Of a stretch of DNA of 64,000 nucleotides, positions 2,652 to 61,963 are shown piece by piece. Numbering within the stretch: the stretch's first letter is position 1; each line of letters starts with the position of its first letter. Made by a program: the position numbers and the translations under genes. Below the pieces are notes generated by a model that saw only the letters and a list, made by a program, of their open reading frames with translations, had not been told where the DNA came from and did not search any database. Source of the DNA: Mobula birostris (Eukaryota); assembly GCF_030028105.1 (NCBI RefSeq), contig NC_092373.1, forward strand, positions 188,015,998 through 188,079,997, written 5' to 3'.

Positions 2652-2735
2652 TAGCTTGCCTGACTTGCTGATTACCTCCAGCATTTTGTGTGTTGTGTTC
2701 AACATTCCCAGGATCTGCAGGATCTCTTGTGTTTA
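2652..2735 (+). repeat. Penelope-like terminal-repeat fragment
   Basis: tgcctgacttgctga...ctccagcattttgtgtg...atctgcag; same family as the arms of the 45843-47189 element. Confidence 0.75.
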
Positions 2736-3459
2736 AATTGTCAGTGTTATAGTCTTTCATAATCCCAAAGTGGAGGGTGGGGGGGGTGTAACAGTCAATA
2801 ATGCACTTGTGAAATACTTTCGCTATTTGAATGGACAATACCCCAGGCACAGATTGGTCATAAAAATGCAGACATATGAAATTTATTGGATTAAAACATT
2901 CATCACTGCAACAAAACTTGCTAAGAAACAGTCATGTTTTCTTTCTTCCAAAATAACCTTAAATATTATTGATTGCAAGTAAGCTGTGTGATGCACAGTT
3001 TATGATCAGCAAGTGTTTTATTAATGAAAGAGTGGCACAAATGTAGTGTCTTTCACGAGCTAGGATCATCGTAAAGGCCTCTGTAGTCAGTGATATCATG
3101 TTTCGGGCAAAGCTGCTCCTTCTAAGAATCCAATAGCAGTGCTCTTGAGCATTTTCAAGATTTTAGAGAGGTGACTAGGGGGAAATCAACTGTAATATTT
3201 ATTTGACTAACTACCAGAAAAGTACTATCTAAATATTTAATGTGCAGACTGCTTCAGGAAGTTGGTGTGGCTTGACATATGCTAAATCACATATTAGTTT
3301 TACTTAGAAAAGACTGAACATATGTCAGCATTTAAGTTTACTGATAGAAAATGATTATGCTGCATTTCTTTCCATTTGTAATTCCTGCTTCTGTAACCAC
3401 TGGTGTATAATTCTCATAAAGTCTTTTTGCCTCAAGACAGATTAAAACATAGCGAGTTT

Positions 3460-3730
3460 AGGGATGACACAGTGGTGCAGCTAGTAGAATTGCTTCCACA
3501 TATCTTAAGCAAACCAAGGTTCACTTCTGACCACCAGTGTGTGCATACATTTTGCATGTTCTCCCCGTGATATGTCCTTGGTACTCCGCTTGCCTTCTGC
3601 ATCTCAAAGATATTAAGAGACAATAAATTAATTGTGACAGAAAATCACCCAGAGGGTAGGTGGGTTGAGAGTGAAAATGCAGAATACTGGGAAATGTGGG
3701 GAAATAGGATTGCTCTCAGTGCTGGTATAG
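3460..3730 (+). mobile_element. tRNA-derived V-domain SINE (HE1-like), degenerate
   Basis: tRNA-like head (cagtggtgcagctagtaga...ggttca) followed by the V-domain core tttgcatgttctccccgtg. Confidence 0.65.
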
Positions 3731-3769
3731 ATTTGATCTGTGAATCATCTCCTCTTCCATTATGAAATA

Positions 3770-4324
3770 CACTCAGTTACCACTTTATTAGGTACACCTG
3801 GAAACTTGCTTGTTAATGCAAATATTCTAATCAACCAATCATGTGGCAGCAAATCTATGCATAAAAGCATGCAGACATGGTCGAGAGATTCAGTTATTAT
3901 TCAGATCAAACATTAGAATGGGGAAAAAATTTGATCTAAGTAACTTTGACCATGGAATGATTGCTGGTGCCAGACAGGGTGGTTTGAGTATCTTAGAAAC
4001 TGTTGATCTGGGATTATCACGCACAAGAGACTCTAGAGTGTATAGAAAATGGTGAGAAAAACAAAAAAAAACATTCAATGAGTGTCAGTTCTGTGGGCAA
4101 AAATGTCTTGTTAATGAGATAGGTCAGAGAAGAATGGCCAGTCTGGTGCAAGTTGACAGGAAGGCAATATTAACTCAAATAACCACACATTACAACAGTG
4201 GTGTGCAGAAGGGCACGTATCTATAAATGCACAACACATCAAACCTTCATCAGAAGACCATAAATACACATTCCGTAGCCACTTTATAACGTAGGAGATA
4301 ACTAATAAATGTGACCAACAAGTG
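3770..4324 (+). mobile_element. Non-autonomous Tc1-like DNA transposon
   Basis: Left end TA|CACTCAGTTACCACTTTATTAGGTAC; right end ...CTAATAAATGTGACCAACAAGTG|TA. Carries a Tc1 transposase N-terminal HTH relic (MGKKFDLSNFDHGMIAGARQGGLSILET...SRVYRKW). Confidence 0.85.
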
Positions 4325-4374
4325 TATATAAAAACTTTACTTTTGTATTTCTTCATGAACAAAATGCAACAGAG

Positions 4375-4800
4375 AAAAGGATGAGTGAGCTCGAGCTTTT
4401 CCCTTTGGAGAGAAGGAGGCTGAGATGTGACTTGATATTGGGTTACAAAATGATAAGAGACATACATGGATCAAGTGGTTAGCCAAAGACTTTTTCCCAG
4501 GGCAGAAATGACAGATAAGAGGGAGCATCTTATAGTGATTGGAGGGAAGTGTAGGGGTGATGTCAGAGGCAAGTTTATTACACACTGAGTGGTGGATGCA
4601 TGGCATGCACTGCTAGGGATAATAGTATACGCAGATATATTAGGGACATTTAAAGTTTTCTTAGCAGACACACAGATAAAAGAAGAAACAGAGGACTATA
4701 CAGGAAGTAAGGATTATATAGATCATAGAGTAGTTAGAAGGTAGTATAACATCATGGGCTGAATGGCCTGTACTATCCACTAATGTTCCTTGTTTTGTGT
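4375..4800 (+). mobile_element. CR1 LINE 3' end, degenerate
   Basis: L.LFPLE.RRLR.DL..Y relic, gggaagtgtaggggtgatgtcagaggcaag, tail gggctgaatggcctgtact. Confidence 0.75.
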
Positions 4801-5679
4801 TTGATAATAGTCAGTTATAACAGAAATCAGCAGGGTATTACACTGTTTGTGACTTCAGACTAACTAATGTGGTTACCCCTTTATGGCTTCTCAGTTCAGG
4901 AGCAGTTAGGTTTGGAAAAGAAATGTTGGCTGTTTCAGTGTTACCCACATCCCATGAATGAATAAATAAAATAGAATGTATTTATTCCATTTAAATTACT
5001 CTACATATTCTTCCTTCCACAATGAATCATTCATATTTCTCTTGTTTTAAATTACAAACTTCCATTTCTCTGCCCAATTTCCTCATCTACATATGTCTTC
5101 CTGAAGCTTGTTATGGATTCCTCACTGCTAGCTGAGTTTTCCATGACTTTCTGAATTTGAAATCCTGCCCTTTATAACCAAGGCGAGGTCACTGATATTT
5201 ATTAAGTGGCTGTTCTTTGTGTTTTAATTTTGTTGATTGATGGCACAATGATTCATTTGTAGGTAAAATAATCTGCCTTTTCAGGGCTTTATCTTCAGTT
5301 TGAATCAAAGGTCCTAAGGAGGATGATTTGCTCTGCAAGAACTCACTGCAAAACAGTACTTTGAACAGTGACACAAGAATTTTGAATAATTTCATTACTG
5401 ACTTTTGTCTCGGGATGATCTGGAAGAATATTTACTGTTGTCTTCATGGAGCAAAGAAATGCTCAATAAATTTCTATGTCTTATTATCATTAAGTAGCTT
5501 CACTTTTTAAGTGTAGTGATGAAATGATGGTTCAGTTCACCAACAAAGTACCACAAAAAAAAAGAAATACCTTCTTATTGGCTTACTGATTGGCTCATTG
5601 ATGTAGAATTTAGCAGAAACACCCTGTATTGCACTCTCTAAAGGACAGTAGGACCTAAGTAGGCAATTTCAACAATTTA

Positions 5680-6125
5680 TGCTGTGCTTTTTTTGCTTAT
5701 TAATGGGATGCATGCATTATTGGTCAGGCTGGCATTTATATCACTTGAGCATATGGTAATGAATCCCTCCTGGAGCCACTTTTCTCCTGGGGAAGGTGCT
5801 TCCGCAGTGCTGTTGGAAAGGGAATACCAGGATTTAACCCTAATAATAATGAAGGAATGGCAATATATTTCTATGACAGGATGGCATGAGATGGTGCTGT
5901 TCCTTACACTGGCTGCCCTTGTTCTAAATTTGAACTTGAGGAGCGCTGTTAGAATGCCGTGCATCTTATCATGCAGATGATGCACACTGCAGCATTGACA
6001 TTAATAGTTAATGTTTAGGATGGAAAATGGGAGGTCATTCATGTAGTCTGATTGAGCCTGAATGGTAAGGAGCTTCTTTGGTGTTGTTGGAGCATTAGTT
6101 GTCAAGGCAAGTAGACAATATTCTT
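5680..6125 (-). mobile_element. Old L2/CR1-group LINE 3' end, of the tail type shared with Deu-domain SINEs
   Basis: Minus-strand ORF contains SF....KSWYSLSNS. Related tails occur at about 4830-4970, 17290-17455 and 32915-33170. Confidence 0.55.
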
Positions 6126-6714
6126 TATGTTTTAGAAAGAATAATGGAGTTATAGAGTCATAGAACATAGAAGCAGTTCTTTTAGACAACTGAGTCCACA
6201 CCAATTCTTTTACACAAATCCTATATTAAGCCCATTTTTCTTTTCCTCACGTTCACATCAGCGACCTCTCGACAGCCAACCCATGTATCTTTCAGATGTG
6301 AGAGGAAACCAAAGTGTCCAGAGGAAATCTAAGTGGTCAAATGTGGAACATGCAAAACTCCACACAGAGAGCCCCAGAGATCCAGTGATCAGGATTAATC
6401 CCCTGGATTTTGAATTGATTTGACTTTATTTCTTACATCCTTCACATACATGAGGAGTAAAAATCTTTACTTTGCATCTCCGTCTGAATGTGCAACGTGT
6501 AAATTATAGTAATTTGTAATAAATAGTATGTACAGTTAGATATACAACAAATCGGCATTCTGTGCCACTGCTGGAAGGGTCGAAAACTAAGGGAACATCA
6601 CAATCAGGTGAATTATCACTGACATGTTGTGAAATTGTTTTCAGTGAAATACATAAAAAATTACTGTAACTTAAAATAACAAATAGATAAGTAGTGTCTT
6701 CAGTCAGAGAAAGC

Positions 6715-6968
6715 AAAGGAAAGAAAAGCTCAAGGCTAAGTTTTTGTTTTCCTTCCCTTCTTTACATCTGCTCAGTTATGACAGTAGAGATGCTAGGCAG
6801 GATAGTGCAATGCTCCTCGTGTGGGATATGGGAAGGCAGGATGATATCCAGTGTCCCAGATGACTACAACTGAGAGAAGTGCATTCAGCTACTAACAATC
6901 TTCCCTAAAGAGTTGGAGCTGGAACTGGATGAACTCCAGATCATTCAGGAGGCTGAAGGGGTGATATA
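6715..6968 (+). mobile_element. CR1 ORF1 N-terminal fragment (Cys motif plus coiled coil)
   Basis: Reads VQCSSCGIWEGR...VPDDYN*EKCIQL...KELELELDELQIIQEAEGVI. Confidence 0.7.
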
Positions 6969-6969
6969 T

Positions 6970-7240
6970 AGATAGATGGTTACTTTATTGATCCCAAAGG
7001 AAATTACAGTGTCACAGTAGCATAACAAATGCACAGGTATACAAATATTAGAAGAGAAATAAGAAAGAATAACAACTTACCTCAAACAGTCTAACAGGAG
7101 GGATTATCAATTCCCCGACCGTGGCTTGACTCAGTATAGAACCTAATGGCTGAGGGTAAGAATAACCTCATATATTGCCCTTTGGAGCAGTACAGTTGTC
7201 TTAGTCTACTACTAAAAGTGCTCCTCTGTTCAGCCAAGGA
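6970..7240 (-). mobile_element. Rex1/Babar-type LINE 3' end
   Basis: Minus strand reads SFLPSAIRFY, then tttgggatcaataaagta and a ctat-type microsatellite tail. Confidence 0.65.
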
Positions 7241-7274
7241 TCCTGAAGAAATACTGGATTAATACCACCCACAA

Positions 7275-7592
7275 ACCCATAAGGCGATAGGATTGACTTC
7301 AAAGGCACAAAACTACTGTGCTGCGCCAGTGGCTTTTGGGACCACCTGGTGAAGAAAGCCATTGAAGTAAGACTAGAGAAAAAGAATTTTAACAAAGACG
7401 AAGAGAAACGGAATTCGATTGTAAACAAGGTGGGACAGTGCAAACCCGAGTGGATGAGGACTAACCAGTCAGGAGGGACAGATGACAGAGGTATATATAC
7501 CACTGGACTAGACATACCCAGGCATCATCCCTGATGAAGATGGCAGAGTCTGTCATCGAAACGTCAGCTAAAATTGATAACTGTACCCTGCT
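7275..7592 (+). mobile_element. Penelope-like element (Penelope/Poseidon type): GIY-YIG C-terminus plus terminal repeat
   Basis: RIDFKGTKLLCCASGFWDHLVKKAIEVRLEKKNFNKDE fits the PLE endonuclease tail H.IDF....L......RL.KEAIEI....N.N.D. It is followed by a hammerhead motif. A second copy of the terminal part lies at 61852-61963. Confidence 0.8.
7520..7585 (+). ncRNA. Minimal type-I hammerhead ribozyme motif with intact core
   Basis: CTGATGA (7531-7537), A, stem II GATGGCAG/CTGTCATC with loop AGT, GAAA (7558-7561), CGTC (GUC triplet ending 7565). Stem III is reduced to the palindrome ACGT. Stem I is only weakly paired in this copy. Confidence 0.65.
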
Positions 7593-7639
7593 TTGTTTGT
7601 CATATTTGCCAGGAAAGCACTAGATCCCTTTTCAGAGAG

Positions 7640-7995
7640 CAAAATAGTTTTCATGGCTTCATAAACTGTTCAGAAATCTGATGGTGAAGGGGAAGAAAGT
7701 GTTCCAAAAATACTGAGTGTGTGCCTTCAAGATCTTGTACCTCCTCCCTAATGGTAGTAATGAGAAGTAGGCATGAATTGGATAGCGGGCGTCCTCAATG
7801 ATGGATGCTGCCTTTTTGAGGCATCGTTTTTGGAGGGTATCCTTGATGGTTCCTATGATGGAGCTGGCTGAGATTACAACCCTCTGCAGTTTTTTTCCCA
7901 ATCCTGTGCTCTCCAAAGTAGATCTTCAGTAATTTGCTAAGAGTCTTTGGTGACATACCAAATCTCCTCAAACTCCGAAAGAAATATAGCTGCTG
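7640..7995 (-). mobile_element. Rex1/Babar LINE 3' fragment
   Basis: KKLQRVV..ASSIIGT...RCLKKAASII.D...P.HA.FSLLP.GRRY...KAHT..F.N.FFP..IRFLN. Confidence 0.85.
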
Positions 7996-8274
7996 GGAGT
8001 TTCTAGGCAGATTGAATGACTTAGATTCTGTGACTCTGGAGATTCTTGGTTAAATATCATCCAAAATAAGATTAAATCTAAATGGATAGCTGTATATCCC
8101 TCTTAATGAATTGACTTTAAAGCCGTGGTTTGAACAGGGAAGGACCATTTTGTTTATAACAGCCTGTAATACTGAATTACTTTTCGTATTTTCATTTCCA
8201 GCAATTAGTTTGCATCTGATTTCTCTCCTTTCCTGCTTCTCACCACTTTTCCACTTCCTTCTCACCTTGTTTTC

Positions 8275-9835
8275 AGAATCAGAATCAAGTTTAATGTCAC
8301 CCACATATGTCATAAAAGTTGTTGTTAAGTGGCAGCAGTATATTGCAGTACATAATAATAAAATCGGTAAATTACAGGTGTTATATACTGTATATAATAA
8401 AAAAAGTTAAACTAAATAAGTGCAAAAACAGAAATAAAAAAAGTAATGAGGTATAGTGTTCATGGGTTCAATGTCCATTCAGAAATCAGATGCCAGAGGG
8501 GAAAAAGCTATTCCTGAATCATTGTGTGTGTGCCTTCAGGCTCCTGTATCTCCTCCTTGATGAGGGCAATGAGAAGAGGGCATGTCCTGGGTGACGGAGG
8601 TCCTTATTGATGGATGCTGCCTTTTTGAGGCATCGCTCCTTGAAGATGCCCTGGATGCTGGAGAGGCTAGTACCCATGATGGAGCTGACTGAGTTTACAA
8701 CTTTCTGCAGTTTATTTTAATCTTGTGCAATGCCTCCCCCATACCAGATGGGAAAGCTCTCCGTGGTACATCTGTAGAAATTTGCGTGTGACTTTGGTAA
8801 CATACCAAATCTTTTCAAACTCCTAATGAAATATAGCCACTGTTGTGCCTTCTTTGTAACTGCATTGATATGTCGGTCCCAGGATAGATCCTCAGAAATG
8901 TTGACACCCAAGAAATTGAAATTGCTCAAACTTTCCACTCTGATCCCTTCGATGAGGACTAGTGTGTGTTCCTCTGTCTTACCCTTTCTGAAATCAACTA
9001 TCAATTCTTTGGTCTTACTGATGTTAAATGCAAGCTTATTGCTGCAACACCATTCCACCAGTTCATCTCTCTCGCTCTTGTATCCCGTCTCGTCACCATC
9101 TGAAATTCTACCAAAAATAGTTGTGTTGTCAGCAGATTTATAGATTGGCGTTTGAGCTGTGCCTAACCACGCAATCATGGGTGTAGAAAGAGTAGAGCAG
9201 TGGGCTAAGCACACATCCTTCAAGTGCACCAGTGTTGAATAGCAGCAAGCTGGAGATGTTATTTCTGATCCACACAGACTGTGGTCTTCCGGTGACAAGG
9301 TTGAGAATCCAGTTGCAGAGGGAGGTAAAGAGTCCCAGGTTTGGAGCTTCTTAATCAGAACTGTAGGAATGAGTGTGTTAAATCTAAGCTGGTTCAATAA
9401 ACAGCAGCCTGATGAACATACTAGTATTGTGCAAGTGATCTAAGGCCACATGAAGAGCCAATGAGATTGCATCTGCTGTAGACCTATTGTGGCGGTATTC
9501 AAATTACAGTGGGTCCAGGTCCTTGCTTAGGCAGGAGTTAATTCTAACTACAAACCACCTCTCAAAGCACTTCATTGCTGTAAATGTGAGTGCTAATGGA
9601 CGTTAAGGCAGCCAGCCCTACTGGTATGATTATTGTCCTTTTGAAGCAGCTGGAAACTTCCAACTGCAGCAGTGAATGACTGAAAATGTCTTTGAACACA
9701 CCCACCAGTTGGTTTGCACAGTTTTCAAAGTCCTACTGAGTACTGTATCCCTTCAGGACCTGTCAACTTGTGAAGGTTCACCCTCTTGAAAGACATTGTG
9801 ATGTCGGCCTCCATGACAGAGATCACAGGGTCACC
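8275..9835 (-). mobile_element. Rex1/Babar LINE, 5'-truncated, about 1.55 kb
   Basis: ORF 8717-9397 has [19 protein letters not shown]...LVEWC..NKLAFNISKTKELIVDFRKGK; (GATTCT)n tail near 8275. Confidence 0.9.
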
Positions 9836-10640: not shown

Positions 10641-10649
10641 TAATCATCA

Positions 10650-13255: not shown

Positions 13256-13829
13256 TCTTTTATTAAAGCTGATTCAGATTCTGGTTCGGATTCTGATTAC
13301 TAACAACTAACAGTTAGGCAAGAAAGGTTGAGTCATAGAGTCATAGAACTATACAACATGAAAACAAGCCTTATGCCTAACTTATCCCCAACAATAACGG
13401 CGCCTTTCTGAGCTAATCCCATTTCCCTGTACTTAGTCTATATCTCTCTAAAGCTATCCTGTCTATCTGCCTCCCTGCTGAGATTCTTCTCCTGGACCTC
13501 TTCCCATCCGTATGGAAGCCATGTTATCACAAAAGGAACCTATTAGCTCATTCTGTAATTACAATCACAAAATTCAAAGCAATGCAAAATAACATTAATG
13601 AGACTAATTCAAACTAAGTTGCATTGATCATTGTTATTATCTCAGAATTATAATATTGTTTAATTGTGAACTGAAGGAGGGAGAAGGGTGGCAAATAGGT
13701 TAGGGTTGTCTTTGATAACTTCCCTTGTTAAGATGGAACAATACCCTTTTTCATTGAGGATAAGCAGAAAGATCTGGGTCATTTTGAAGAATAAGTTAAT
13801 AATATAAATGAAATAATCAAAAAATGGAG

Positions 13830-13992
13830 CTAAGAGGCTGTAGATGCTGGAATCTGGAGCAAAATTCAATCAGCAGGAGGAAGTCAATGGATGACCAGTC
13901 CTGATACAGGGTTTCGATTAGAAATATTGATCATTCCTCTACCTCCACAGATGCTACCTGACACACTCTATTACACCAGGACCTTCTTTTTT
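13830..13992. repeat. Fold-back Penelope terminal-repeat relic with degenerate hammerhead motif
   Basis: Left arm ctgtagatgctggaatctggagca...cagcaggaggaa. Right arm cagtc-CTGATAC-agggtttcgatta-GAAA-tatt...ccacagatgctacctga. Confidence 0.6.
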
Positions 13993-14109: not shown

Positions 14110-15875
14110 ATACATCCAGGAACTAGTGGGAATATAGAGGAATGGGAAGCTTTTAAAAACCAACAGAAGGCAACTACAAAAGTCAGAAAGAGAGAAGAGA
14201 TTAAATATGAAGGGAAGCTAGCCAATAATATAAAAGAGGTTACAAAAGTTTTTTTTAGATATATAAAGAATAAAAAAAAGAGTGAATATCAGACCACTGG
14301 AAAATGACAGCAGAGAAGTAGTAATGGGGGACAAAGAAATGGCAGACAAACTTAATAAGTATTTTGTATCAGTCTTCACTGTGGCAAACACAAGCGGGGT
14401 GCTATTACTAAGGAGAAGGTGGTTGGGAAGCTGATAGGTCAGAATGACTACACACCAGGGTCCTGAAAGAGGGGACTGAAGAGATTGTGGAGGCATTAGT
14501 AATGATCTTTCAAGAATCACAAGATTCTGGAATAGTTCCGGAGGACTGTAAAATTGTAATTGTCACTCCACTCTTTAAGAAAGGAGTGGGACAGAAGAAA
14601 GAAAATTAGGCCAGTCGGCTGGACTTCAGTGGTTGGAAAGATGGTATATGTATTATTAAGGAAGTGGTTTCAGGGCTTGTAGGTACATGACAAAAATAGG
14701 CCAAAGTCAGCACGATTTTCTAAAGGGGAAATTTTGCCTGACAAATCTGTTGGAATTCGTTGAGCAAATAACAGGCAGGGTAGACAAAGAAGAGTCAGTG
14801 AATGTTCCTTACTTGGCCATACATGAGGCATTACAGAAAAGATACTAGAATGGACAGAGCACTGGCAAAGAGTGGGAATAAAGGGAGCCCTTTCTAATTG
14901 GCTTCCAATGACTAGTGGTATTCTTGGGTTAGTGTTTCATTTCACATTATATGTCAATTATTTGGATGAAAGAATTGATGATTTTGTGGCGATACAAAGA
15001 CGATACAAAGATGGGTGAGGGACAAGTAGTGTTAAGAAAGCAGGGTGTCAGCAGTAGGACATAGACTGAGAGAGAAGTGGCAGATGGAAATGAGCATAGG
15101 GAAGTGCACGATCATGCACATTGGTAGAAGGAATAAAGGCACGGACTATTTTCTAAATGGGGCGAAAACTCAAAAATCAGAGATGCAAAGGGATCTTGTG
15201 TGGGATTTCTCAAAGGTTAACTTGCAAATTGAGTCAGTGGTAAGGAAGGCAAATGCAACGTTTTGACGGGACTAGAATAAAACGCAACAATGTAATGCTG
15301 AGGCTTTTTTAGGCATTGGTCAGACTGTACTTGGACTATTATGAGCAGTTTTGGGCCCCTGATCTAAAAAAGGATGTGCTGGGTTTGGAGAGGGTCCAGC
15401 AGAGGTTCTCGAGAATGTTCCCAGGAATGAAAGGGTTAATGTATGAGGAGGATTTGTTGGTTCTAGGCTTGTACCTGCTGGAGTTTAGAAGAATGACAGG
15501 CTCTCATTGAAACCTATCGAATATTGAAAGGCATAGATAGAGTGGAAGTGGAGAGGATGTTTCCTCTAGTGTGGGAATCTAGGACCAGAGGGTACAGCCT
15601 CAGAATAGAGAAACATCTCTTTAGAACAAAGTTGAGGAGGAGCTTCTTTAGCCAGAATGTGGTGAATCTGAAGAATTCATTGCCACAGACATCCGTGCAG
15701 GCTAAGTCACTGGATATATTGAAGGCAGAGGTTGATAGGTTCCTGATTGATCAGGGTCTCAAACGTTATGGGGAGAAGACAGGAGAATGGATTGAGAGGG
15801 ATAATAAATCAGCCATGATGGAATGGTGGAACAGACTCAATGGGCTGAATGGCCTCATTCTACTCCTCTGCTAAA
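14110..15875 (+). mobile_element. CR1 LINE ORF2 relic with internal deletions
   Basis: KYEGKLANNIK...FFRYIK; SG.VPED....VTPLFKKG; LVRLYLDYYEQFWAP.LKKDVL.LERVQ; CR1 3' UTR. Confidence 0.9.
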
Positions 15876-16412: not shown

Positions 16413-16526
16413 ACTCCAGAAGAGCTGGAGGATGACTCGGACTTCGAGCAAGAAGACTATGATGTGCGCAGCCGGACAAGTGTTCAGACCGAGGATGACC
16501 AGCTTATTGCGGGGCAAAGCGCAAGG
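16413..16526 (+). CDS. CTNNA2: Internal coding exon of alpha-N-catenin (catenin alpha-2); acidic phospho-linker region; 114 bp, phase 0/0
   Basis: Translates TPEELEDDSDFEQEDYDVRSRTSVQTEDDQLIAGQSAR. This matches CTNNA2 (EDDSDFEQEDY) rather than CTNNA1 (DDSDFETEDF). Acceptor tttatcttttgtttctattcAG ends at 16412; donor GTGAGT starts at 16527. Confidence 0.97.
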
Positions 16527-16632
16527 GTGAGTGTCAGAGCTGGTTTGCTTTTACATTTTGTCCTCGTCAAGTTGAATAAATGAAGATTTAAAAAATTCTA
16601 AATATTCTAGAAGTTTTAAATATTCTGGGAAA

Positions 16633-16793
16633 CAGACTCAAAATGCTGGAGAAACTCTGCAAGCCAGGCAGCACCTATGGAAAAGAGTAAACAGTCGGTG
16701 TTTCAGGCCGAGATGCTGCCTGGCCTGCTGAGCTCCTCCACCTTTTTGTGTGTGTAGCTTTGGATTTCCAGCATCTGCAGATTTTCTCATGTT
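16633..16793. repeat. Fold-back Penelope terminal-repeat relic about 105 bp downstream of the CTNNA2 exon donor
   Basis: caaaatgctggagaaactctgcaagccaggcagca pairs with tgctgcctggcctgctgagctcctccacctttttg. Confidence 0.85.
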
Positions 16794-17689
16794 CGTTAAA
16801 TGCTGGTGTCTTTCTCACAGAAATGACCATCTTTGAAGAAATAGATATCAATATTCATTAAGTAAGTCTTTAACTGCCTTGTTAAATAGCAGACTGATAT
16901 ATATTACAGATCAGCTCAAGTCAGTAAATGTGGGCTAATATTGCTGGTTGCAGACCACTCCATGAGAAGGCAAAACAGACCTGTAACCAGATCCTTTAAT
17001 GTAGAGATGAAGTTCTGTTCAATAGTATTCTGTTTATGCCTAGGATTTGGATCTTGATTTCATGCTTTTACTCACTTCCTGATTAAATTGCAATGAAAAT
17101 TAAACTTCTGTAATTTCAGGTATATTGTCTGCATTTTTCCTTTCAGGTGATCCCTGTATTTGTCAAATACATTGGCACAGAGGAAAACTAAGTCACATGT
17201 AGTATTTTATCTAAATCTTATTGCCCCACAATATTCAGTGATCAAAAATAAAAATTGACATTTGTTATTCTTTCACCTTTTGTGTTAAGTATGTCACCAG
17301 TCCTTCACTGTTGATAACACAATGTCCTGGAACTTCCTGCCTGACAACACTATGGGAGTGCTTTTAACTGCAAGACTGTAACATCTCACCACCACTTTAC
17401 CAATTAAAGATTGGATAACGTGTGTTGGCTTTGTAAAATATCCTTTGAATGACTGATTAAGTCCATCTAAAATGCTAAATATATTCATGAATGTAGCCAG
17501 ATCTCCTTGAACTGAAGAAAATAGTTTTTCAGTCAAATGGATTTCCTCTGCTTTTCACTGAAAAAAATACAGATGAATAGAGTTACCACAGTTAATATGT
17601 GATGCACCTTTAAGGGAATAACATGAACAGATAATGTACCAGCTGTCAATAGGAATGAGCCCCAACATGCAAATGCTTACAGAGTAACT

Positions 17690-18015: not shown

Positions 18016-19269
18016 CTTACTGTATCCTAGATTCCTGGAACTAAGAATATTCACCATGTCCAGTTTGAGTAAGCAAGGGATAATCCCTGTACTGTTATGC
18101 TGTTCCTCCAGGCAAGGGGAGACCAGCCATTCTACAGTAATCAAAACCAGAATCTGGAGAAGCCACAAGCCAATTGTAAATACCTCTCAGAATGGCATCA
18201 CCATTAGCCAGCACATCACCTTCCTCAGAACATCATTCAGATTCTTAAATATAAAACATGTTGGAACATAACCAGGTAATATCTACTGAAAGAGAAATGA
18301 AGTTAAATTTTCATTTCAGCTCAAATGGGAAGCCATAGATAGAACACATTAATCTTGTTGCTGTCACCATGGATACTGCCTGGTCTGCTGAGTATTTTCC
18401 AGCACATTCTCTACTTATTTCGAATTTACAACATCCATATAATTCACCTTTATATTTCATTTCTATTTTGTTTTCCTTTCTTTTCTCCTTTACCAGTGAC
18501 TGTGCATTAAGTCCATATCCCCCACTATCTCTATGAAATTGCCTCATATATTTCAACACTGATGTTCAGAATGATTTCTGTGGATGTCAGGTCTTCAGTG
18601 TGCCTCAGGCAGAATTAATGACAGTAACCTTTCAAACATTTGTTGACGCATTTATTCAGACAAAGGAAATTTTACTCATTTGAATCAAAGAAATAAATCT
18701 CTTTGCATCACAGGGGACGTGTTAGTCCAACAAAAATCAATGATATTTCTCATTGATTCCTGACTGCTGTACCTGATATCAGACAGACATTTCAATAATA
18801 TGGCAGATGGATGGAATTTGAACTGTATTGATAATTTTAGCTTGATGGCAGATTTCAAAGAAGTACTTACTTTGTGTATTCAAGTGAATTTCCAATTAAA
18901 ACTGACACAAGACAGACCTAGATACTGGAGATCTGGATCAACAAACATATAAAATGCTGGAAGAATTCAGCAAGTCGGGCAACCTTTTTTGGAGGGAAAT
19001 GTATAGTTGATTTTTTTGGGTTGAGACCCTGCATTGCCCTTCAATGTATATGTATTGTTTCAATTAAAACTGAATAGTTGCATTAACGTAAGGTCACATC
19101 TTTATTGCATTAAGTCCTTAAAGCAAGAATCTGTCAGTGCTGGAAATGTAGAATAAAAGGAAAAAATGCTGGAAATATTCTGCAGTTTAGGTATCATCTG
19201 TGGAGTAGAGTTCACAATTCACCTTGGTGGTGAAAGATCAATAACCAGAAATCCTAACTATTTTAAACT

Positions 19270-26360: not shown

Positions 26361-26404
26361 TATAGTCCGTAATTCTCCCCACATTGACATCCTCTACCTC
26401 CAGA

Positions 26405-36426: not shown

Positions 36427-36527
36427 GCAACACACAAAAAATGTTGGAGGATCTCAACAAATCAGGCAGAATCTATGAAGGGGAATAAATAGTTGATGAT
36501 TTGGGCCAAGACCCTTCATCAGGACCC
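36427..36527 (-). repeat. Penelope terminal-repeat fragment with half-intact hammerhead motif
   Basis: Minus strand gtc-CTGATGA-agggtcttggccc-AAAT-catc-aact; GAAA is lost. Confidence 0.75.
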
Positions 36528-40392: not shown

Positions 40393-40475
40393 GCAACACA
40401 CATCAAAGTTGCTGGTGAACGCAGCAGGCCAGGCAGCATCTCTAGGAAGAGGTACAGTCGACGTTTCAGGCCGAG
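40393..40475 (-). mobile_element. 83-bp Penelope terminal-repeat insertion with 10-bp TSD
   Basis: TSD ACCTATATAA at 40383-40392 and 40476-40485; carries the 3' half of the hammerhead motif (minus strand GAAACGTCGACTG). Confidence 0.85.
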
Positions 40476-45119: not shown

Positions 45120-45301
45120 GCCATCATGGCCCAGCTGCCCCAAGAGGAAAAGGCAAAGATTGCTGAGCAAGTGGAGAGCTTCCACCAGGAGAAGAACAAG
45201 TTGGACGCCGAAGTGGCAAAGTGGGACGACAGCGGCAATGACATAATTGTGCTGGCAAAACAGATGTGTATGATAATGATGGAAATGACTGACTTTACCA
45301 G
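45120..45301 (+). CDS. CTNNA2: Next internal coding exon of alpha-N-catenin; start of the actin-binding (VH3) domain; 182 bp, phase 0/2
   Basis: Translates AIMAQLPQEEKAKIAEQVESFHQEKNKLDAEVAKWDDSGNDIIVLAKQMCMIMMEMTDFT plus AG (split R codon). Acceptor ctgtctttctttacAG ends at 45119; donor GTAAGA starts at 45302. In frame with the previous exon. Confidence 0.97.
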
Positions 45302-45842: not shown

Positions 45843-47189
45843 CACAAACAAGAGAAAATCTGCAGATGCTGGAAATCCGAGCAACACACACAAAATGCTT
45901 GAGGAACTCAGCAAGCCGGGCAGCATCTAGGAAAAGAGTACAGTCGATGTTCTGGGCTGAAACCCTTCGGCAGGACTAGAGGAAAAACTGAGGAGTAGAT
46001 TTAAAAGGTGAGGGGAGGGGAGAGAGAAGCACAAGATGTTACTTGTAAAAACACCATCCTCTTCTCTCCATTCTTCTGTCTCGGTCTTATCTGCTCTCAG
46101 GTTGAGACTTCTCATTCTAGAACGAAAGAAAGGTCTTCCTTTTTCAAAGAAAGGGGCTTCCCTTCTTCTACCATCAACACTGCCCTCAACCACATCTCTT
46201 CCATTTCACGCACGTCTGCTCTTACCCTATCCTCCCACCACCCCACAAGGGATAGGGTTCCTCTTGTCCTCGACTACCACCCCACCAACCTCTGTGTCCA
46301 GCACATAATTCTCTGAAACTTCCGCCATCTCCAACAGAATCCCACCACCAAGCACACCTTTCCTTCCCCACCCCCCCCAAATTACAGCTTTCCGCTGGAA
46401 TCACTTCCTACACGGCTCCCTGCTCCATTCATCCCTCCCCACTGATCTCCCTTCTGGCACTTATCCTTGCAAGTGGAACAAGTGCTTCACCAGTCCCTAC
46501 GCCTCCTCCCTCACTACCATTCAGGGCCCTAAATAGTCCTCCCAGGTGAGGCGACACTTTACCTGTGAGTCTGTTGGGGTCATATACTGTGTTCAGTGCT
46601 CTTGGCCTCCTGTATATCAGTGAGACCCAACGCAGATTGGGAGACTGCTTCATCGAGCACCTACACTCCATCCACCAGAAAAAGCGAGATCTCCCGGTGT
46701 CCACCAATTTTAATTCCACTTCCCATTCCCATTCCGATATGTATATCCATGGCCTCCTCCACTTTTGTGATGAAGCCACACTTAGGTTGGAGGAACAGTA
46801 CCTTATATTCCATTTGGTTAGCCTCCAACCAGATAGCATGAACATCAATTTCTCAAACTTCCAGTGATACCCCCCACTCACCCCCGCCCCCTTCACCATT
46901 TCCCATCCCCTTTTCCCTCTCTTACCTTATTTCCTTGCCCAGACATCTCCTCCCTCTGGTGCTCCTCCCCCCTTTTCTTTCTTCCATGGCCGTCTGTTTC
47001 TTTCAGCAATCAACTTCCCAGCTCTTTACTTCATCCCTCCCCTCCTAGGTTTCACCTATCATCTTGTGATTCTCTCTCCCCTCCCTCCACCTTTTAAATC
47101 TACTCCTCAGCTTGTTCTCCAGTCCCTCTGAAGGGTTTCAGCCCGAAACGTCGACTGTACTCTTTTCCTACATGCTGCCTGGCCTGCTG
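45843..47189 (+). mobile_element. Penelope-like element (Neptune type) with inverted terminal repeats and 14-bp TSD
   Basis: TSD AGGATGATACTTAA at 45829-45842 and 47190-47203. The inner part of the left arm 45843-46038 is the reverse complement of 47060-47189. Interior encodes RT thumb/linker (LICSQ.E..HSRTKE.SSFFKERGFP; RVPLVL.YHP), a Cys linker (TYPCKWNKCF) and GIY-YIG (GVIYC...LLYISETQRRLGDCFIEHL...EEQYLIF.L.SLQP.SMN). Confidence 0.93.
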
Positions 47190-48929
47190 AGGATGATACT
47201 TAATTTTATAAAAACATCCCATTTCTATGTCTAACCCACTGACTGGTACATAATGAAACTATAGGGGCTGGGGGGGGGGGGGGGGTTGATACATTCTATT
47301 CCCAGAAGCAAAATTTACAACTTAGGCAGTTACGAAGCTAGACTCCTCACATTAACACGACCGATTGAGGATTGATCCTAAATTTAAGTATCTACCTGCT
47401 TTCCACTAGATTCATTTCTGGATACCATGGAGGTACAAACAGAAGGGAAGAGCAAATTTTCTGAAGCTGGAGAATTCAATATTGTGCCCAAAGGAAAATT
47501 GTTGTTCCTTGAAGCTTATATTGGGCCTTACTGTAACAATGCAGGAGGCTACAGACAAAAATAGCAGGTTATCAGAAGTTCAGGGTCACAAGTGCAGAGT
47601 AACTGCAGGAGTGATTCTTTACTTAATTTCACTTCTTTTTCCATTTGGGCACACAGAAAATTGTTCATTTACTCGCATGGCTGCCAGAAAAATAACAATG
47701 TTGCCGTCGCACAAACAAAGATAGTTTATATAGTTACAACTACAGATATCTCAAGAAGTGCAGGATCAAAAATCACAGGAATATACTGTATGGCCTTTCA
47801 CACTACAATAGCAGGAGTCATCAGATAAGCTAAATACCCACAAGGTGGATCAAGTAGATGGACAGATCATTCTTCTCTGTTGCACGAGAGAACAGCTTGG
47901 ATGGGATTGAGGTTCACAATAACAATATTGAAAATGTCTTTTAGCTGATGTAGTTGCTGTTTTCAGAAGTAGCCACGGGAGTTCATCTTAATTTAAATAT
48001 GGTTACTCATAAAATCTGTGCTTTCCAAAATTAAATGTTAGCCCCCTTTCCGTATTTGTTGCTTTTAAGAAAGGAATATTAAATGTTTAAAAATAGATGA
48101 ATGGGAAATTTTTACCACAATAATTCTGCATTTTCATTTATATCAGAAAATACCAGTCACATCGAAAGCAATTTAAATGAATTTTATAATGAAGGTATCG
48201 TACGTTAATCCATGTAAAATTAATATAAGAGGGACCTTTCTTTTAGACTAGTTGAAATCTGGAATCTACTACTTGCAGATGTGGTGGAACTGGGATCAAT
48301 TGTTTTCATCAAGGAATTGGATCAAAATATGAGGTTAAAAACTGACTGACAAGACATCAGAATTAGGGCTATAGGGTGGAAAGGCGAGACCATTATAGAG
48401 AGTCAGCACGGTCTTGATAGGTCAATTGGTCTCCATTCTACGATCCCTAACCAATTTGTAGCCATCCAATGGTTCAATAAAGACATGGTTTTGTAATGAA
48501 TATACAGTGCTAGTTATACCTGCCCATTGTGTGGTTTTGTTATTGGAAAGGTAATGAGAATTTAATTTATGGTATTTTGATTGGTAGATATCCATGGCTC
48601 GTGGGTTTTGTGTAGTCTTTCATCTTGTAGGAAACAGGGATGAGGGGATTAAAGGCATGCATGTTCACTCAGCTTCTATTTGACACCAGAGAAATACACC
48701 TGCCTTTGAAGGTCCATTTGTCTTAGCCCTTCTAGTGGGTATGTCAAAATATTTCAGTTTTCAGTGCCACAAACAGAAATGTAAAATAAAAAGGTCCAGA
48801 TCAGACAACAGCTAGGGAGCAAAAACAGGGTCAACGTTTTAAGCTCTTTGTCAATACTTTGAATTTATTCTCCTTAGGTCTTCATAATACTGTTGTTGCT
48901 TTGTCAACATTTATGTAATTGTTTCATGA

Positions 48930-49730
48930 AGAGATCAAACAGATTGACGCCACGTTCACTGATGAGACAAAGATACGTGAGGAAGATGCAAGAGTCAATG
49001 AAGGGATGTAGATAGGTTATGCAAGCAGGCAAACATTCAGCAGGTGGGGTATCAATATGGAGGAAAGTAAGATTATCACTTTGGATAACAAATGAAAAAG
49101 CGAAAAAAGATGTTCAAATGGACGAGTAAAAAATGCCATAGGACAGAGGTCTCTGGGTGCCCTTGAATGAAACTACAGCAGTAGGTCAGGAGGGTTGTAG
49201 AATGCAGGACACGGGACAGCTGATGCTGGAATCTAGAGCAAGAAACAACCTGCTGGGCAAAAAAAAACAATCTGAGGAACTTAGCAGGTCGAACAACATC
49301 TGTGAGAAGTAAGGAATTGCCATCAGCGTCTCAGGATTTATGTGTAGAATATCAGCCTTTAGTACAAAGGGGATGTATGATTTAAGTAGAGAAGGTTTGC
49401 TATAACTGTAAACAGCATGGTGAGATTACATCTTGAATGCCATGTTTTGTTTGTTATCTTGACTGAAGAAAATACTTCACAGGATGCAGTTCAGAGAAAT
49501 TTATGAGGTTGATTCCTGGATGAAGAGGTTAGCATAATGGTGAGCAGATTCAACTGATACTCATTGATTTTCAGAAGAATGAGAAATGATTCTAAGGTAA
49601 TTGACAGGATTGGTTTTGGTAGGATGTTTTCCTCCGAGAGGAATCCAGCAATCAGAGTTTCAGAGTAAGCAAAACCCTATTTAAGGTAGAGAAGAGGAGG
49701 AATTTCTTCACAAAGATGGTTTGATGCAGT
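48930..49730 (+). mobile_element. Old CR1 relic interrupted by a Penelope terminal-repeat piece (about 49215-49335)
   Basis: FTDETK (FADDTK) relic; ...LVRLHLE; RRNFF. Confidence 0.6.
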
Positions 49731-49894
49731 CCTAAAGGACAGAATGAGACAATTAGTCCACATCAATCATCAAGTGCTATTAAGACTAATTCCATCTCCT
49801 TCTCCTTCTACCTGTCAATTCCTCTCAGATTCTACTATTTACATGTGTAACACTCAGCTATATCAGCTCGTATTTATCTAGGGGAAACCCCGTC

Positions 49895-50787
49895 CGCCGC
49901 CGGAGACTCCAAGCCACCTTGTCCTCCCCCAGGGAACCACCAAATATCTGACTTATCCTCAACCTCGCCACCTCGTCCGCCTTCACTACCCCTCGGCGCT
50001 GCAACCCAGTAAGCATTCTCTCCAGCCGAAAAATGTATTCTGAGAGCTTTTCCCCTCTTCCCTGCCGCATGTGATGAAACTCCACTAAAAACTCCCAGGA
50101 ACCTCCCGACATTCCAAACGCTCCCTCCAAAGCTTCCAGATACTCCGCCAGGGAAGCCGAAGGCTGTTCAGCTTTCAGCTCCCGGACGACACCGGCCACC
50201 CCTTCCTGCAAACTTTCCACCAATCACTGTCGCTTTTCCTCATCTAAGCCTGGCCACGCCTCTAACAACTGGGTCGTATTTTTGATCCATGTGTCATAAT
50301 CGTCCTCCCCTTCCAGGGTGGGCGTGGCTCCTGAGAAAATTCTCAGCTTTGGGCGGGGCCCCTCGGCCCTTCTCACCTGGGAGGTAATGGCGGCTGCTAA
50401 CTCAGAGGTCTCACCTCTAGCGTGGGTTGGGGCCTGGCCAAGCCTTCCCATTCTGACCCTCCACCACTGGCTACTGGCACCTCCCCTGGGGTCTCATCTA
50501 GCTCCCCGAGGCCCCACAGCCCCGCCTTCCCCTGGACGCTGACTATCGCTGGTAGTTGAATGTCATGACGTCAGCACTCGTACAAACCAACACCCAGCTG
50601 GATTCCACTTCTTTACCGCACCTTCCAGCTATCAGTTCTACCTGTACCATCTTTGATACCTTTGATCAAACTCAACCCTCGCACTGGTACTTCTGCCGGT
50701 GCGGAAATCCACCCCACTTAACACGCATGCATGATTCACCGGTACGTCCTCTAACTCACACCAGCTTACAATCTTATCTCGATCCAT
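49895..50787 (-). pseudogene. Disrupted PNMA (paraneoplastic Ma)-like Gypsy gag
   Basis: MDRDKIVSWCELEDVPVNHACVLSGV (N-domain, then frameshifts); capsid part KLRIFSG.TP..EGEDDYDTW...EEKRQ*LVESL...YLEALEGAFG...Q..GEKLSEYIFRLE. The stop at 50224-50226 is likely CGA>TGA. Confidence 0.85.
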
Positions 50788-50856: not shown

Positions 50857-52786
50857 TATGTAACGCTCAGCTATATCGGCTATGTCTCCCGGTTGCGTTG
50901 GTTGCTATGCAATGCCACCTGGTACGACCTCAAACATCAAACATCAGACAGCACAGAATGTACACTTTACAGATTACACTTTATAATCTTACTGGGACTA
51001 TGAGATTAATAGAGATACAATATGAAAGAAAAAAGAAAAAAACGCCAGAATTATCAAAGTTCAATTTCTTCATGCACACAGTTGGAGCTCAAATACCCGG
51101 GGTCTTCTCTCTTCACCCTGCGATCCACTCTGACCCCCTCGACTCGCCACTCAGGACCACCCAAGGCGATCGAACAGAGCGCTTCCAGCATGCCCGTCTT
51201 ACTCCCGGTCTCTCCTCTCAAGCCCGCCAAACACACCGGTTCCCAGCCATATGAGACAAATATCACCTCAAAAAAGAATAACATGGACACCCATTGGTTC
51301 ATTCCCTCCTTATCATTAGTGATAACCGAAATAAACTGCTAGCTGCTAGAAAAAGAATCACTGTCTCAGCAGTTAACATCACAGAGAAACCATTTTAATT
51401 ATAACATAACAAAGAAGCCATTTTGATTAGCATATGCAGTAACATAAAAGAAGAAACCCCTTACACATGCACCAAGAGTAATATATTGTGGACAATTACC
51501 ATGTCAATTCACGTTGTTTGGATCTGGCAGGGATGCGGATACTGGAATGAAATCCACATGATCACAGGGAAAATATCCAAACTCTGCACAGAAATCAGGA
51601 CTGAATCCTTGTGGATGGAGAAGTAAGGCACCACTGGGCCACTACTTCATCAGGGCTGATGGCTGCAAACCTTCACATTTTCTGCTCCAGAGTGATAGCA
51701 ACAAGTACCCTATTGCACTTCAAGAACACATTGCACGGACAAAAGGGCTCCAGTTATTATCTTATCCTGTAATAGACATTCCCTTTGTTCCAGCCCTTGC
51801 CCATTCCATCTCCTCCACTACTCAAATTAACTTGATTTCTCACTTTATTTTTTAGTTCTGATGAAGGACCTTTAACCAGAACATTAACTGGTCTTCTTTC
51901 CACATTTGCAGAGTGATTGGCTGAGTTCTAGCATTTCTGCATTTGGTACAGTTCAAAATGACAACTAAATTGCCTAGATTCCCAAGATTGGTACCCAGAA
52001 TCCTTGAAATCCACAGTATTAAAAAGGGCCACACTTGTTCAATTCACGTTTCAATCTGCCTGTTGCTCTATAACCCTCTCCCACCACTTATGAGAAGGCA
52101 TGGCTTCTGGGGATAAAAATCTGTTCAAAATCACTCTTAAGCAGAAACACACAATTGTATCATCTTGCTTATGTTACACCTTTAATGGAACAATCTATTT
52201 AGTCCCTGCTCTTCCTAAAGCCATTTAAGTAATTTTCAAATATTTGTCTACTTCCATTTTAAAAAGCATACACAAATCATACTTCCTCCACTGTTTCTTC
52301 TAAACCATTTCATCACCTAGCAACGCACTGCATAATTTTTTTAAATAATCTCTGAATCACTCTCTTCCAGAACAGTGAAGCATTTCAATAGAGGTAATAT
52401 TAAGTCTTTGAAAAAAGAAAAGATTTGATTTTGTTCCGTGCTTTAGCATTTATGAGGAGCTTCACACTCAGTGAATTACTCAGAATTATATGAATGTACG
52501 ACACTGTAGCATCTGATTTGGTTCAAGTTGTCCAGGATGATGTTTGTGCTCTGTATGAGCCTGCTTTCACCCTTCTTCCCCTGCTGTTAGAGTAACTGTA
52601 CCATAGATAGAAGAGTCAAGAGCAAGAGGACAGAGATTTAATGTGATTACCAAAAGAACTAAAGGTAATATGCAAATGATCTATTTTTAACAGACCGAAT
52701 GGCTCACATCTGAATGGTGCTGGAGACAGACTAATTTGTAGCTTTCAAAAAGAGAATGGTGTCAATACTTTAAATAAAATGATTAT

Positions 52787-59571: not shown

Positions 59572-59879
59572 TAACCAGACTTACTGAACTCTGACTTCAC
59601 ACAAGTTCTTACATTAAAAGCATTTTCCAGCTTCATGGTATTCATTAATGATTGGATACAGTGCGTATTTCTTTTGTTTCATTATGGGTTAATCATTCAA
59701 TGAAATGAAATGTATATGATTTGGGCAGCTATAGCAATCAGATGTTACTCACTTAAGGAGAAACTGGCTAACAGAAATCTCTCAGGAACAAAGTCCTTAC
59801 ATAACTACTGGATTGCTTGCAATTGGTCACTCATCATGGTGCACAGTGCATACATTGAGTAACATAAACAAAATTCATT

Positions 59880-60170
59880 TTATTTGTTTTCATTTTATTT
59901 TATTCAAAAGTAAGCCTTCTGGCCCTTTGAGGCATACTGCCCCAGCCAGCCCACAACCCTGATTAACCTTGACCTAATCACAGGACAATTTGCAATGACT
60001 AGTTAACCCACCCAGTACATCTTTGGACTGTGGGAGGAAACAATAACGTGCGGGGAGATGTACAGAGACTCCTTACAGAACGAAGCCAGATGTGAACCCT
60101 GAACTCTGAACTCTGGAACGCCTCAGATTGCAATAGCATTGCATGACTACAATGCTACCGTGTCACACGG
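59880..60170 (-). mobile_element. V-domain SINE
   Basis: Same family as 20085-20380 (cctaatcacaggacaattt...ctttggactgtgggaggaaac...gactccttacaga). Confidence 0.75.
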
Positions 60171-60515
60171 AATTTTCTGGATTTCCTCACCCAGGCCACG
60201 CCTATTTCTTGACACATCTGCTCTTGAAGTTCACGCTGACTATTGACGGGGGCGGGTGGTGGAGGAGGTTCTGCATAATAAACCCACTCGGGTAACCATG
60301 CCCTTATATCTAGATGCTTCCCAAATGGCCTCATTAGATAATCCCTCAGGTTTATCCATTCCAAGCACTGTTTTTATTTGTTTTTTTTTATCAAAAAGAC
60401 AACATCCCTTCCACTCTTGTTCACCTGACTTGCCTGAAGTATTGGTTTCCTAGAACATTGAGCTGCCAATCCTGGTCTTCTCTCAGCCACTTTTCTGTTA
60501 TCCCATTCCTTAGAG

Positions 60516-60598
60516 CAGGGGTTCCCAAACTTTTTTTTTATGCCATGGACCCCTACTATTAACCGAGGAGTCTGAGTACCACAGGTTGGAAATCCCTG
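60516..60598. mobile_element. hAT-Charlie-type MITE, 83 bp
   Basis: TIRs CAGGGGTTCCCAA / TTGGAAATCCCTG; 8-bp flanks CCTTAGAG / CCCTGGAG (6/8 match). Confidence 0.7.
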
Positions 60599-61851
60599 CC
60601 CTGGAGGCAACTCATACACTCAGTCCGTCTTTCTTAACTGTTAGGCTACGTACGTGTATTGAAAGAGATGCAATTTAAACAAGATTTACGTCTAGTGCAG
60701 GCTGAGGGATGGGATGGGTTCATCTGTCACCAGAAACTATATTGTTAAATTACTTTGGATTCATTTGTTTGTGTTCCATGGACAAAAATGCTCGTAGTTC
60801 GTAACATAATGAGCAATTTTTATACATCTCGATTGCTAACATAAGAAGTGGAAAATTCTGGCAAGTATGAAATTAAGGCTGCATAAGAAATGTGTATTTT
60901 GAACTTTACCCTGTATTTGGCCTGACAGTATTGGTGCTGCACCATTATTATCTGCCTGTCCCTTGTCAGCACTGGCAGACCCTTTAGGGGAGAGGTGGAA
61001 TTAAAAGCAAGGCTTAAGATTTCCAGCACCTGTCATTTAGTAATTTCCCTTTTATTCTGTCTTTATTCAGATTTCAATTATGCTAAGCTCATCTAAATTA
61101 ACCCACAATTAACTCGCTCCAGTTGTGTAAAAATATTGGCCTCTTATTCTGAAAAGCACTTGCCATTTGTCACTAAGTTGCTGCTGGCAAAGAGAGGATT
61201 GGAGCAATTTTTTACAACCATGCAGTGACTTTCTTCTCATTAAAATAGTTATCTGCATAATTATAACTGCATAAGAAAGTAATTTAGGAATAAAAACAAG
61301 CTATTAGGCCCAGCATGTCCATTCAATGCCAGGGTGCAATCGACAGTTGTCGATGTTTGTCCTATAAACCCCCTAGCCTCAGCATCTTATACCATTGTAT
61401 GAAATAGATGCAAAAGGAAACTTTTCAGCAACCACCCCCCCACCCCATGACTGTCTGGGTATCCAATAACATCATACCTGATCTATTTTCTAAGGGTCAA
61501 TATTCCTATCCAAAATATCGAATAATGTCCTGTCTTGAATATGTTAAGTGACTGACCTCGAGTTGGTTAAGAATTGCAAAGATTCAGCATACTTTAAGTG
61601 AAGTGAAGTCTTTCCACCTCAGTGCAGAATGACTTATCCCCTCATCTGAGACTGTGGCTCTGAGTTTAAAACAAGCCATTCAGCAGAAAGATCACCCCTG
61701 AATGTACTCCCTTCAGCCTGGTGAGAGTATTTCATTGAGAACATTTCTCACTTGTTTAAACTCTGAAGAATATTAAATTCAAATCCTTTCTCGAAAAAAG
61801 AGCTAACATATTGAAAAAGGATCTAGTACTTTCCTGGCATATTTGATGAAT

Positions 61852-61963
61852 AACGATGGGGGTATAAATGCCATCGGACTAGAAATTCCTGATGAAGCTG
61901 GCAGAGTTTGTCACCGAAATGCCGGTTAAAATCAATACCTGTACCCGGCTGGAAGCCCAAGAG
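61852..61963 (+). mobile_element. Penelope/Poseidon terminal-repeat fragment with hammerhead motif; second copy of the 7480-7592 sequence
   Basis: ggtataaatgccatcggactaga...CTGATGA (61889-61895), agctggcagagtttgtcacc, GAAA (61916-61919), tgcc, ggttaaaatcaatacctgtaccc. Confidence 0.75.

Follow-up and report, generated by a model that had tools for sequence, protein, structure and literature searches.

Penelope-like element relics in an alpha-catenin gene of Mobula birostris are ordinary insertion stubs of an element with a minimal hammerhead motif, and their scars likely record copying into both cut strands

We analysed a 64,000-nucleotide stretch (the window; positions 188015998-188079997 of contig NC_092373.1) of the 4.0-Gb genome of Mobula birostris, which lies within an alpha-catenin gene and harbours a family of short relics, here called family A, that a preliminary description had interpreted as hammerhead-bearing Penelope terminal repeats. 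The relics are real but ordinary insertion stubs of a Penelope-like element (PLE) with an already described minimal ribozyme motif. The window pieces are the 3′ pseudo-long terminal repeat (pLTR) ends of a very abundant Neptune-type PLE. We are fairly confident that they are independent, decaying 3′-end insertions of an endonuclease-bearing (EN+) PLE, whose fold-back copies likely arose from a double-strand cut and two primings on uncut RNA. Two things are added to what was known of such elements: a lineage that was amplified with an A-to-C exchange at position 6 of the catalytic core (A6-to-C), and insertion scars likely recording copying into both cut strands.

A profile hidden Markov model built from 236 young genomic copies gave 16 matches in the window, which correspond to about 12 insertions, and none in a reversed 814-kb control. 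All of the roughly one dozen related pieces listed in the preliminary description were matched, together with two more stubs at 18367 and 19125. The family A pieces are given below with their strand; signed positions within the element refer here and throughout to the predicted cut site (C17 = 0).

2657-2737, plus strand: stub consisting of the tail only (+25 to +105), without ribozyme, profile match
13826-13985: probable decayed fold-back, right arm clear (13896-13985, plus strand), left arm marginal, core broken
16631-16799: short fold-back, junction -16/+18, without CUGANGA, weak hairpin (z -2.4)
18367-18405, plus strand: additional stub, absent from the earlier list
18906-19032, minus strand: decayed single copy starting at about -22
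19125-19208, minus strand: additional decayed stub
33188-33394: fold-back, left end long and right end short, 11-bp duplication (33170/33397), core broken
36427-36526, minus strand: single copy with CUGAUGA preserved and GAAA broken, 11-bp duplication
37077-37330: fold-back with two long ends, core bases kept in the minus arm, palindrome and stem I broken
40391-40478, minus strand: young single copy, 96.6% identical to an intact element, +68 to -18, without CUGANGA, 10-bp duplication
45843-46041, minus strand: inverted terminal arm of the 45843 insertion, long tail, core CUGCCGA (A6-to-C lineage)
46042-47190, plus strand: 5′-truncated body of the same insertion with broken reverse transcriptase (RT) thumb, Cys linker, GIY-YIG remnant, 3′ untranslated region (UTR) and decayed ribozyme
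49217-49334, minus strand: very decayed single copy
51853-51933, plus strand: very decayed single copy, CUGAUGA kept, GAAA broken

At least four fold-backs of 160-250 bp had been claimed. Three short ones are clear (16633, 33190 and 37083), but the fourth (13830) is marginal, with a shuffle p of 0.044 for its left arm, and has lost its folding (z 0.27). Strong hairpins are predicted for 33188-33394 (z -9.4, 20-bp helix) and 37077-37330 (z -7.6, 25-bp helix). The arms of the latter copy have a private change in common, unlike the pattern seen in young copies, which may reflect conversion or true self-priming. None of the 16 pieces retains both CUGANGA and GAAACGUH, and the window copies of family A can thus not be called hammerhead-bearing. 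Nor is the insertion at 45843 the Neptune-type parent it had been taken for: it is bounded as a whole by a perfect 14-bp duplication (45829/47190), its identity to the young element amounts to 75%, and it therefore represents a dead, 5′-truncated inverted product and not a source.

Taken by majority, 99 older copies free of gaps give a sequence with a stem I of 5 bp, CUGAUGA, a single additional A, a stem II of 4 bp carrying a tetraloop, GAAA and the palindrome ACGU, and this sequence equals the motif reconstructed previously from the window. The reconstructed 38-mer occurs 79 times exactly in the genome and is absent from the reversed control, and one 34-nt ribozyme variant has 19,046 exact matches genome-wide. 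Majority sequence and young haplotypes display the features of minimal type I PLE hammerheads, namely the core, an additional base following A9, helices I and II and a palindromic remnant of helix III. This identification agrees with the published motif (PMC4209133). An Rfam scan gave no match to a hammerhead model at E values up to 5. The expected covariation within stems I and II was not observed, since compensatory double changes did not exceed chance among 259 family A copies; the pair-keeping changes seen were one-sided only (C-G to U.G and G-C to G.U). The window also holds copies of a second family (family B), which has the core and the palindrome in common with family A, while the stems of the two families are unrelated. 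Selection on the core after insertion was not detectable in old copies (conservation 0.886 for the core and 0.902 for the stems). According to folding prediction the young motif on its own forms an inactive hairpin, the probability of an active-like fold being 0.0006, and a GUCGAC self-duplex (-10.3) across the cut site outcompetes the ACGU helix (-3.1). In the commonest young lineage a G.U replaces the normally conserved G10.1-C11.1 pair at position -8, and C7 makes pairing between core and cut site possible.

Using the broken endonuclease remnant of the 45843 insertion as query, we obtained 154,776 first-look candidates genome-wide. Natural open frames of 895 and 922 amino acids encode an RT (YIDD), a CX4CX2C linker and a GIY-YIG endonuclease (GVIY..LYIG), with a ribozyme in sense orientation about 300 nt past the stop codon. 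The linker was present in all five long frames inspected. Pfam gave a weak RVT_1 match to the parent frame (E 0.001, below cut-off) and did not recognise the decayed endonuclease pieces, atlas matches to RT/GIY-YIG clusters reached 0.98, and a PDB sequence search with the full parent frame returned no match. A CX2-5CxxC linker between RT and endonuclease is a feature of Neptune elements that is common to Nematis (PMC8557442). By its predicted protein the parent is a Neptune-type EN+ PLE, with a linker criterion that also fits Nematis. The repeat unit measures 3,515 nt, with the ATG at +139. Seventeen of 30 loci having the start of the open reading frame (ORF) carry an upstream ribozyme and are thus partial tandems (pLTRs); all 17 extend beyond +112 and across the cut site, and in the remaining 13 the end lies at +113 or later. 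The hallmarks of EN+ PLEs, a single ORF for RT and GIY-YIG, partial-tandem pLTRs, an inverted 5′ copy, a one-sided tail and a target site duplication, were all found. The abundance of the element is apparent from a single 61-nt stretch of the window, which has 11,950 exact matches in the genome.

Young insertions were sampled from these 11,950 matches by taking 96 of the first 100 listed, which yielded 90 insertions; four listed matches and the duplicate loci L137 and L139 were left out, eight multi-piece chains stayed unclassified, and for loci L111-L140 the flanks comprised only 1.5 kb. The 90 insertions include 46 inverted copies and 36 single copies besides the eight chains. Target duplications, with a mode of 14 bp, flank 41 of the 46 inverted copies and 17 of the 36 singles, compared to none of 138 swapped controls. 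The inverted copies show 44 distinct junction pairs, and their arm lengths range from less than 60 to about 1,400 nt, continuous with UTR and ORF.

These data bear on the origin of the fold-backs, for which the preliminary description had offered two alternatives. Recurrent integration products of a Neptune-type element are expected to have unique junctions, duplications of their own of about 14 bp and arms extending into the ORF, and this is what was found. The other alternative, a non-autonomous family resembling retrozymes or miniature inverted-repeat transposable elements (MITEs), transcribed, cut and reinserted as a unit, is most improbable and already largely refuted, because 44 of 46 junctions differ, 41 copies have their own duplication and the arms grade into the ORF. 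It could draw on the 30 of 43 mixed-end inverted copies that measure 138-285 bp and lack an ORF, on two junction pairs that recur among the 46 with a few further recurrences in loci ending near -31, and on animal retrozymes reported as derived from PLE ends (bioRxiv 10.64898/2026.07.22.740005). Yet the recurrent junctions coincide with microhomologies of the ribozyme, the core is incomplete in many stubs, and in a fold-back the ribozyme faces its own antisense, with which it pairs. Tandem arrays were likewise absent from the window and from 814 kb of the host alpha-catenin gene, about 70% of its coding span, which served as gene sample. Among 98 ribozyme matches in this sample only five same-strand pairs lie less than 1 kb apart. 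Three such regions were compared: the neighbours proved only 73-74% alike in two, and no alignment resulted for the third.

The outer ends of the inverted copies are strictly paired: in 43 of 46 a long end at about +101 is combined with a short one at about +68 (p 2e-10), in either order (22 versus 21), and the three exceptions lack a duplication. Inner ends cluster at -17 to -37, where 48 of the 110 at risk are found, about ten times background (end hazard per base 0.021, versus 0.0015-0.002 at -61 to -400). Copies have an edge between -31 and -32, which was confirmed by genome-wide counts: stops amount to 7.9% at -30 (1,772/22,527), 8.2% at -31 (1,709/20,755) and 2.9% at -32 (544/19,046), and 27 of 30 loci ending at -31 represent true junctions. 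Among the 43 mixed-end copies both arms are short in 29, both are long in 12, and only two are mixed. At the lineage-marking site +6 the arms agree in 33 of 38 pairs (permutation mean 22.8).

A weaker second edge of inner ends is located at -58 to -60, at another initiator-like sequence, and two full-length copies start there. Loci L203 and L092 contain, from -52 to -30, a branch-point-like sequence followed by a pyrimidine tract and AG, ending at stem I. A pattern of this sort has been reported for the intron of Drosophila virilis Penelope. A spliced template was considered and rejected, as neither the young singles nor the 30 loci ending at -31 have an upstream exon in common. The ribozyme cut site was also rejected as the origin of the main class of 5′ ends: templates run through it and the inner ends pile up upstream.

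The 45843 insertion belongs to a lineage with a changed catalytic core. Of 31 gap-free ribozymes in loci picked by similarity to its body, 27 carry a base other than A at position 6 (23 C, 4 T); the four with A6 lie in the flanks. In the unbiased gene sample C occupies this position in 7 of 38 gap-free ribozymes. Of 7,535 older-type matches the first 100 listed were counted by eye and included 30 with C, or roughly 2,000 copies by extrapolation to this tight pattern. These copies still have inverted arms and duplications. In another hammerhead, that of phage Bcep176, cleavage at 0.3 mM Mg2+ slowed with A6C from 0.30 to 3.6e-6 per minute (PMC7151607). By analogy, the exchange likely cripples cutting, and yet the lineage multiplied. 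Since, in addition, templates cross the cut site, ribozyme cleavage is probably not needed for insertion, as is also suggested by the in vitro result on the anole element.

EN+ PLE insertions carry a one-sided tail of 30-40 bp (PMC8557442, PMC3846280). In the anole element the tail is bounded by two internal start sites, and from these the protein extends both strands after cutting them (PMC11167929). A fold-back of family A would begin with one cut per DNA strand, the two being about 14 bases apart, and reverse transcription would then be primed at two points of an uncut RNA. The long and short ends would correspond to two internal RT start sites, one per strand, as in the anole element in vitro, and the two cDNAs would be joined at their 3′ ends via microhomology or a few added bases. 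Copies with two short arms may stem from RNA beginning just before the ribozyme, or from release of the RT at this point. The sequence just before stem I fits an initiator consensus. A more specific version is conceivable, to which we give somewhat less than even weight: a dimeric enzyme makes the 14-base staggered cut and uses one start site per strand on uncut RNA to produce head-to-head cDNAs, the hammerhead being kept as a structural or RNA-start element and not as a catalyst, hence the expansion of the A6-to-C lineage to thousands.

Fold-backs might instead arise by self-priming, in that a cDNA, or an antisense template as proposed for rotifer Penelope, snaps back on a palindrome or stem I and copies itself. 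This was put forward in PMC3846280 and would account for arms that usually agree at lineage sites as well as for the 11 of 43 junctions overlapping by at least two bases, some of them exactly at stem I or the GUCGAC palindrome. Against it, 23 of the 43 junctions contain inserted bases and nine are blunt or overlap by one base, the long/short pairing is strict in both orders and goes along with a 14-bp duplication, and in the anole element both strands are cut and extended, with two start sites in use (PMC11167929). Moreover, arm pairs differ at +6 in 5 of 38, and rare variants occur in both arms in just 2 of 91 cases; with five discordant pairs, and an anchor pattern that lowered power, the discordance test is limited. 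Self-priming is thus weakened, although arms share lineage markers in 33 of 38, and we regard it as unlikely.

Several observations nevertheless weigh against two primings on uncut RNA and an RNA start before the ribozyme. Nine of 123 inner ends lie near the cut site (-10 to +8), if on palindromes. The cut at -60 separating short from long arms was set after the data had been seen, agreement of arms at lineage sites is also expected of a fold-back copy of one cDNA, arm lengths are uncorrelated in the 12 long-long insertions (rho 0.15), and the window copy at 37083 has two long ends. A cap-derived extra G was seen neither at the -31 edge (G 29, A 25, C 46 of 100, by eye) nor at -30 (G 36, T 38, C 26, by eye). 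A transcription start at these edges is unsupported, because about nine in ten copies intact to -30 extend further upstream. Finally, A6C is not a null mutation, as the phage ribozyme cut well in Mn2+ or in 1-10 mM Mg2+ (PMC7151607). Beyond the papers cited, no published two-strand model and no report of these elements in cartilaginous fish was found; Repbase, subscription journals and supplements may hold the family.

The preliminary description had also assumed that the relics seed the host pre-mRNA with latent cleavage sites and double-stranded hairpins. Such hairpins would be candidates for the control of editing or splicing. A Vinculin-family search placed the window inside a plus-strand alpha-catenin gene (about 187.08-188.24 Mb) that includes a 527-kb intron, and two exons in the window translate as alpha-catenin.

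16413-16526, plus strand: alpha-catenin exon (host gene, likely CTNNA2)
45120-45301, plus strand: alpha-catenin exon (host gene)

The location inside an alpha-catenin gene was thus confirmed, but CTNNA2 itself is only the likely paralogue, judged from gene size, the 527-kb intron and residues we take to be CTNNA2-like. The giant intron, which holds part of the gene sample, presumably contains an antisense LRRTM gene in mammals.

The gene sample harbours 128 insertions. Singles are evenly distributed (49 sense, 51 antisense), the density of young copies equals the genome average, and intact ribozymes number two in sense and six in antisense orientation (p 0.28). A depletion of intact cores on the sense strand was not seen in these 814 kb, where power for intact copies is low; two versus six are too few to exclude mild selection. 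The idea of latent cleavage sites fails, because none of the 16 family A pieces of the window is intact and neither strand bias nor depletion was found. Of the proposed hairpins, 33190 and 37083 are predicted to fold with 20-25-bp helices, as any inverted repeat would, whereas 16633 is weak and 13830 no longer folds. Although elsewhere the gene contains two intact family A ribozymes in sense orientation and the family B copy at 7531 has intact core bases on the sense strand, an influence on the host pre-mRNA is very improbable, given the predicted inactivity of the lone motif and the failure of single minimal hammerheads to cleave in the published test (PMC4209133). The copies most likely ride along as inert passengers; those of the window are ordinary junk, and nothing points to an influence on the neuronal gene.

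Two pieces of the window belong to family B.

7283-7592, plus strand: 3′ end of family B, with the end of the endonuclease frame and a minimal hammerhead at about 7526-7570
61885-61962, plus strand: family B stub, U16.1 changed

The hammerhead of the first has an intact core, 8-bp stem II and ACGU palindrome and a mismatched stem I, and the core of the second is broken because U16.1 is changed. In relatives of family B, RT and GIY-YIG frames are present but the Cys linker is missing, and the ribozyme combines an 8-bp stem II with the ACGU palindrome also found in family A. The second family claimed at 7520 and 61870 is thus real and, to judge from these frames, a separate, Poseidon-like element. 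Further repeats were noted in the window. Positions 23566-23874 hold an element with inverted ends of about 43 bp and an internal repeat of the end, which has relatives elsewhere in the gene sample; we take it to resemble a mariner-type MITE, not connected with the Penelope relics. The segments 344-898, 8717-9439, 15497-15874, 21670-22257, 26275-26955 and 38154-39078 are presumably decayed RT fragments of CR1/L2/RTE-like long interspersed nuclear elements (LINEs). Elsewhere in the genome, several young Penelope copies sit within decayed LINE-type repeats. An open frame at 49858-50223 on the minus strand presumably resembles a fragment of a Gag-derived PNMA-like protein.

The origin of inverted PLE insertions and the role of the hammerhead are stated to be open questions in PMC8557442 and PMC11167929. 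The family A numbers help to separate two published ideas, self-priming and priming from both strands. The coupling of arm lengths and the A6-to-C lineage, the latter a natural experiment on the need for cleavage in vivo, make the questions of PLE integration and ribozyme function more testable. If the more specific version given above is true, tens of thousands of stubs form a fossil record of PLE integration.

The minimal PLE hammerheads of PMC4209133 have the same core, an extra base between positions 9 and 10.1, no helix III and a palindromic 15.2-16.2, and likewise reside in the terminal repeat, mostly as dispersed singles; pairs on opposite strands 100-700 bp apart were already noted there. 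Family A differs in its short, 4-bp helix II, in the G.U that replaces G10.1-C11.1 in the youngest lineage, in the A6-to-C exchange of one lineage, and in its more than 19,000 exact copies, compared to 2,000-9,000 reported. For EN+ PLE insertions the same partial tandems, head-to-head inverted pLTRs, tail at one end and duplications of 9-10 bp or longer have been described (PMC8557442, PMC3846280). Here these patterns are quantified, with long and short ends in 43 of 46 copies, coupled arm length classes and inner ends at the front edge of the ribozyme, and the end pattern points to two priming events rather than to the self-priming proposed in 2013. The anole Poseidon element PAc, studied in vitro (PMC11167929), likewise has a tail bounded by two internal RT start sites; both strands are cut and extended, uncleaved RNA is accepted, and ribozyme mutants still insert. 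It belongs to a different clade, and its ORF begins inside stem II, in contrast to 139 nt past the cut site in family A, for which the evidence is genomic alone. Non-LTR retrozymes (PMC7229834, bioRxiv 10.64898/2026.07.22.740005) are also non-coding, PLE-related and equipped with a type I hammerhead; they form head-to-tail tandems with mostly canonical ribozymes, whereas family A consists of single or head-to-head stubs with the minimal motif. The A6C hammerhead of phage Bcep176 (PMC7151607) carries the same core substitution as the 45843 lineage, but is a single phage ribozyme with a preference for Mn2+, while the exchange described here occurs in the minimal motif of a multi-copy retroelement lineage.

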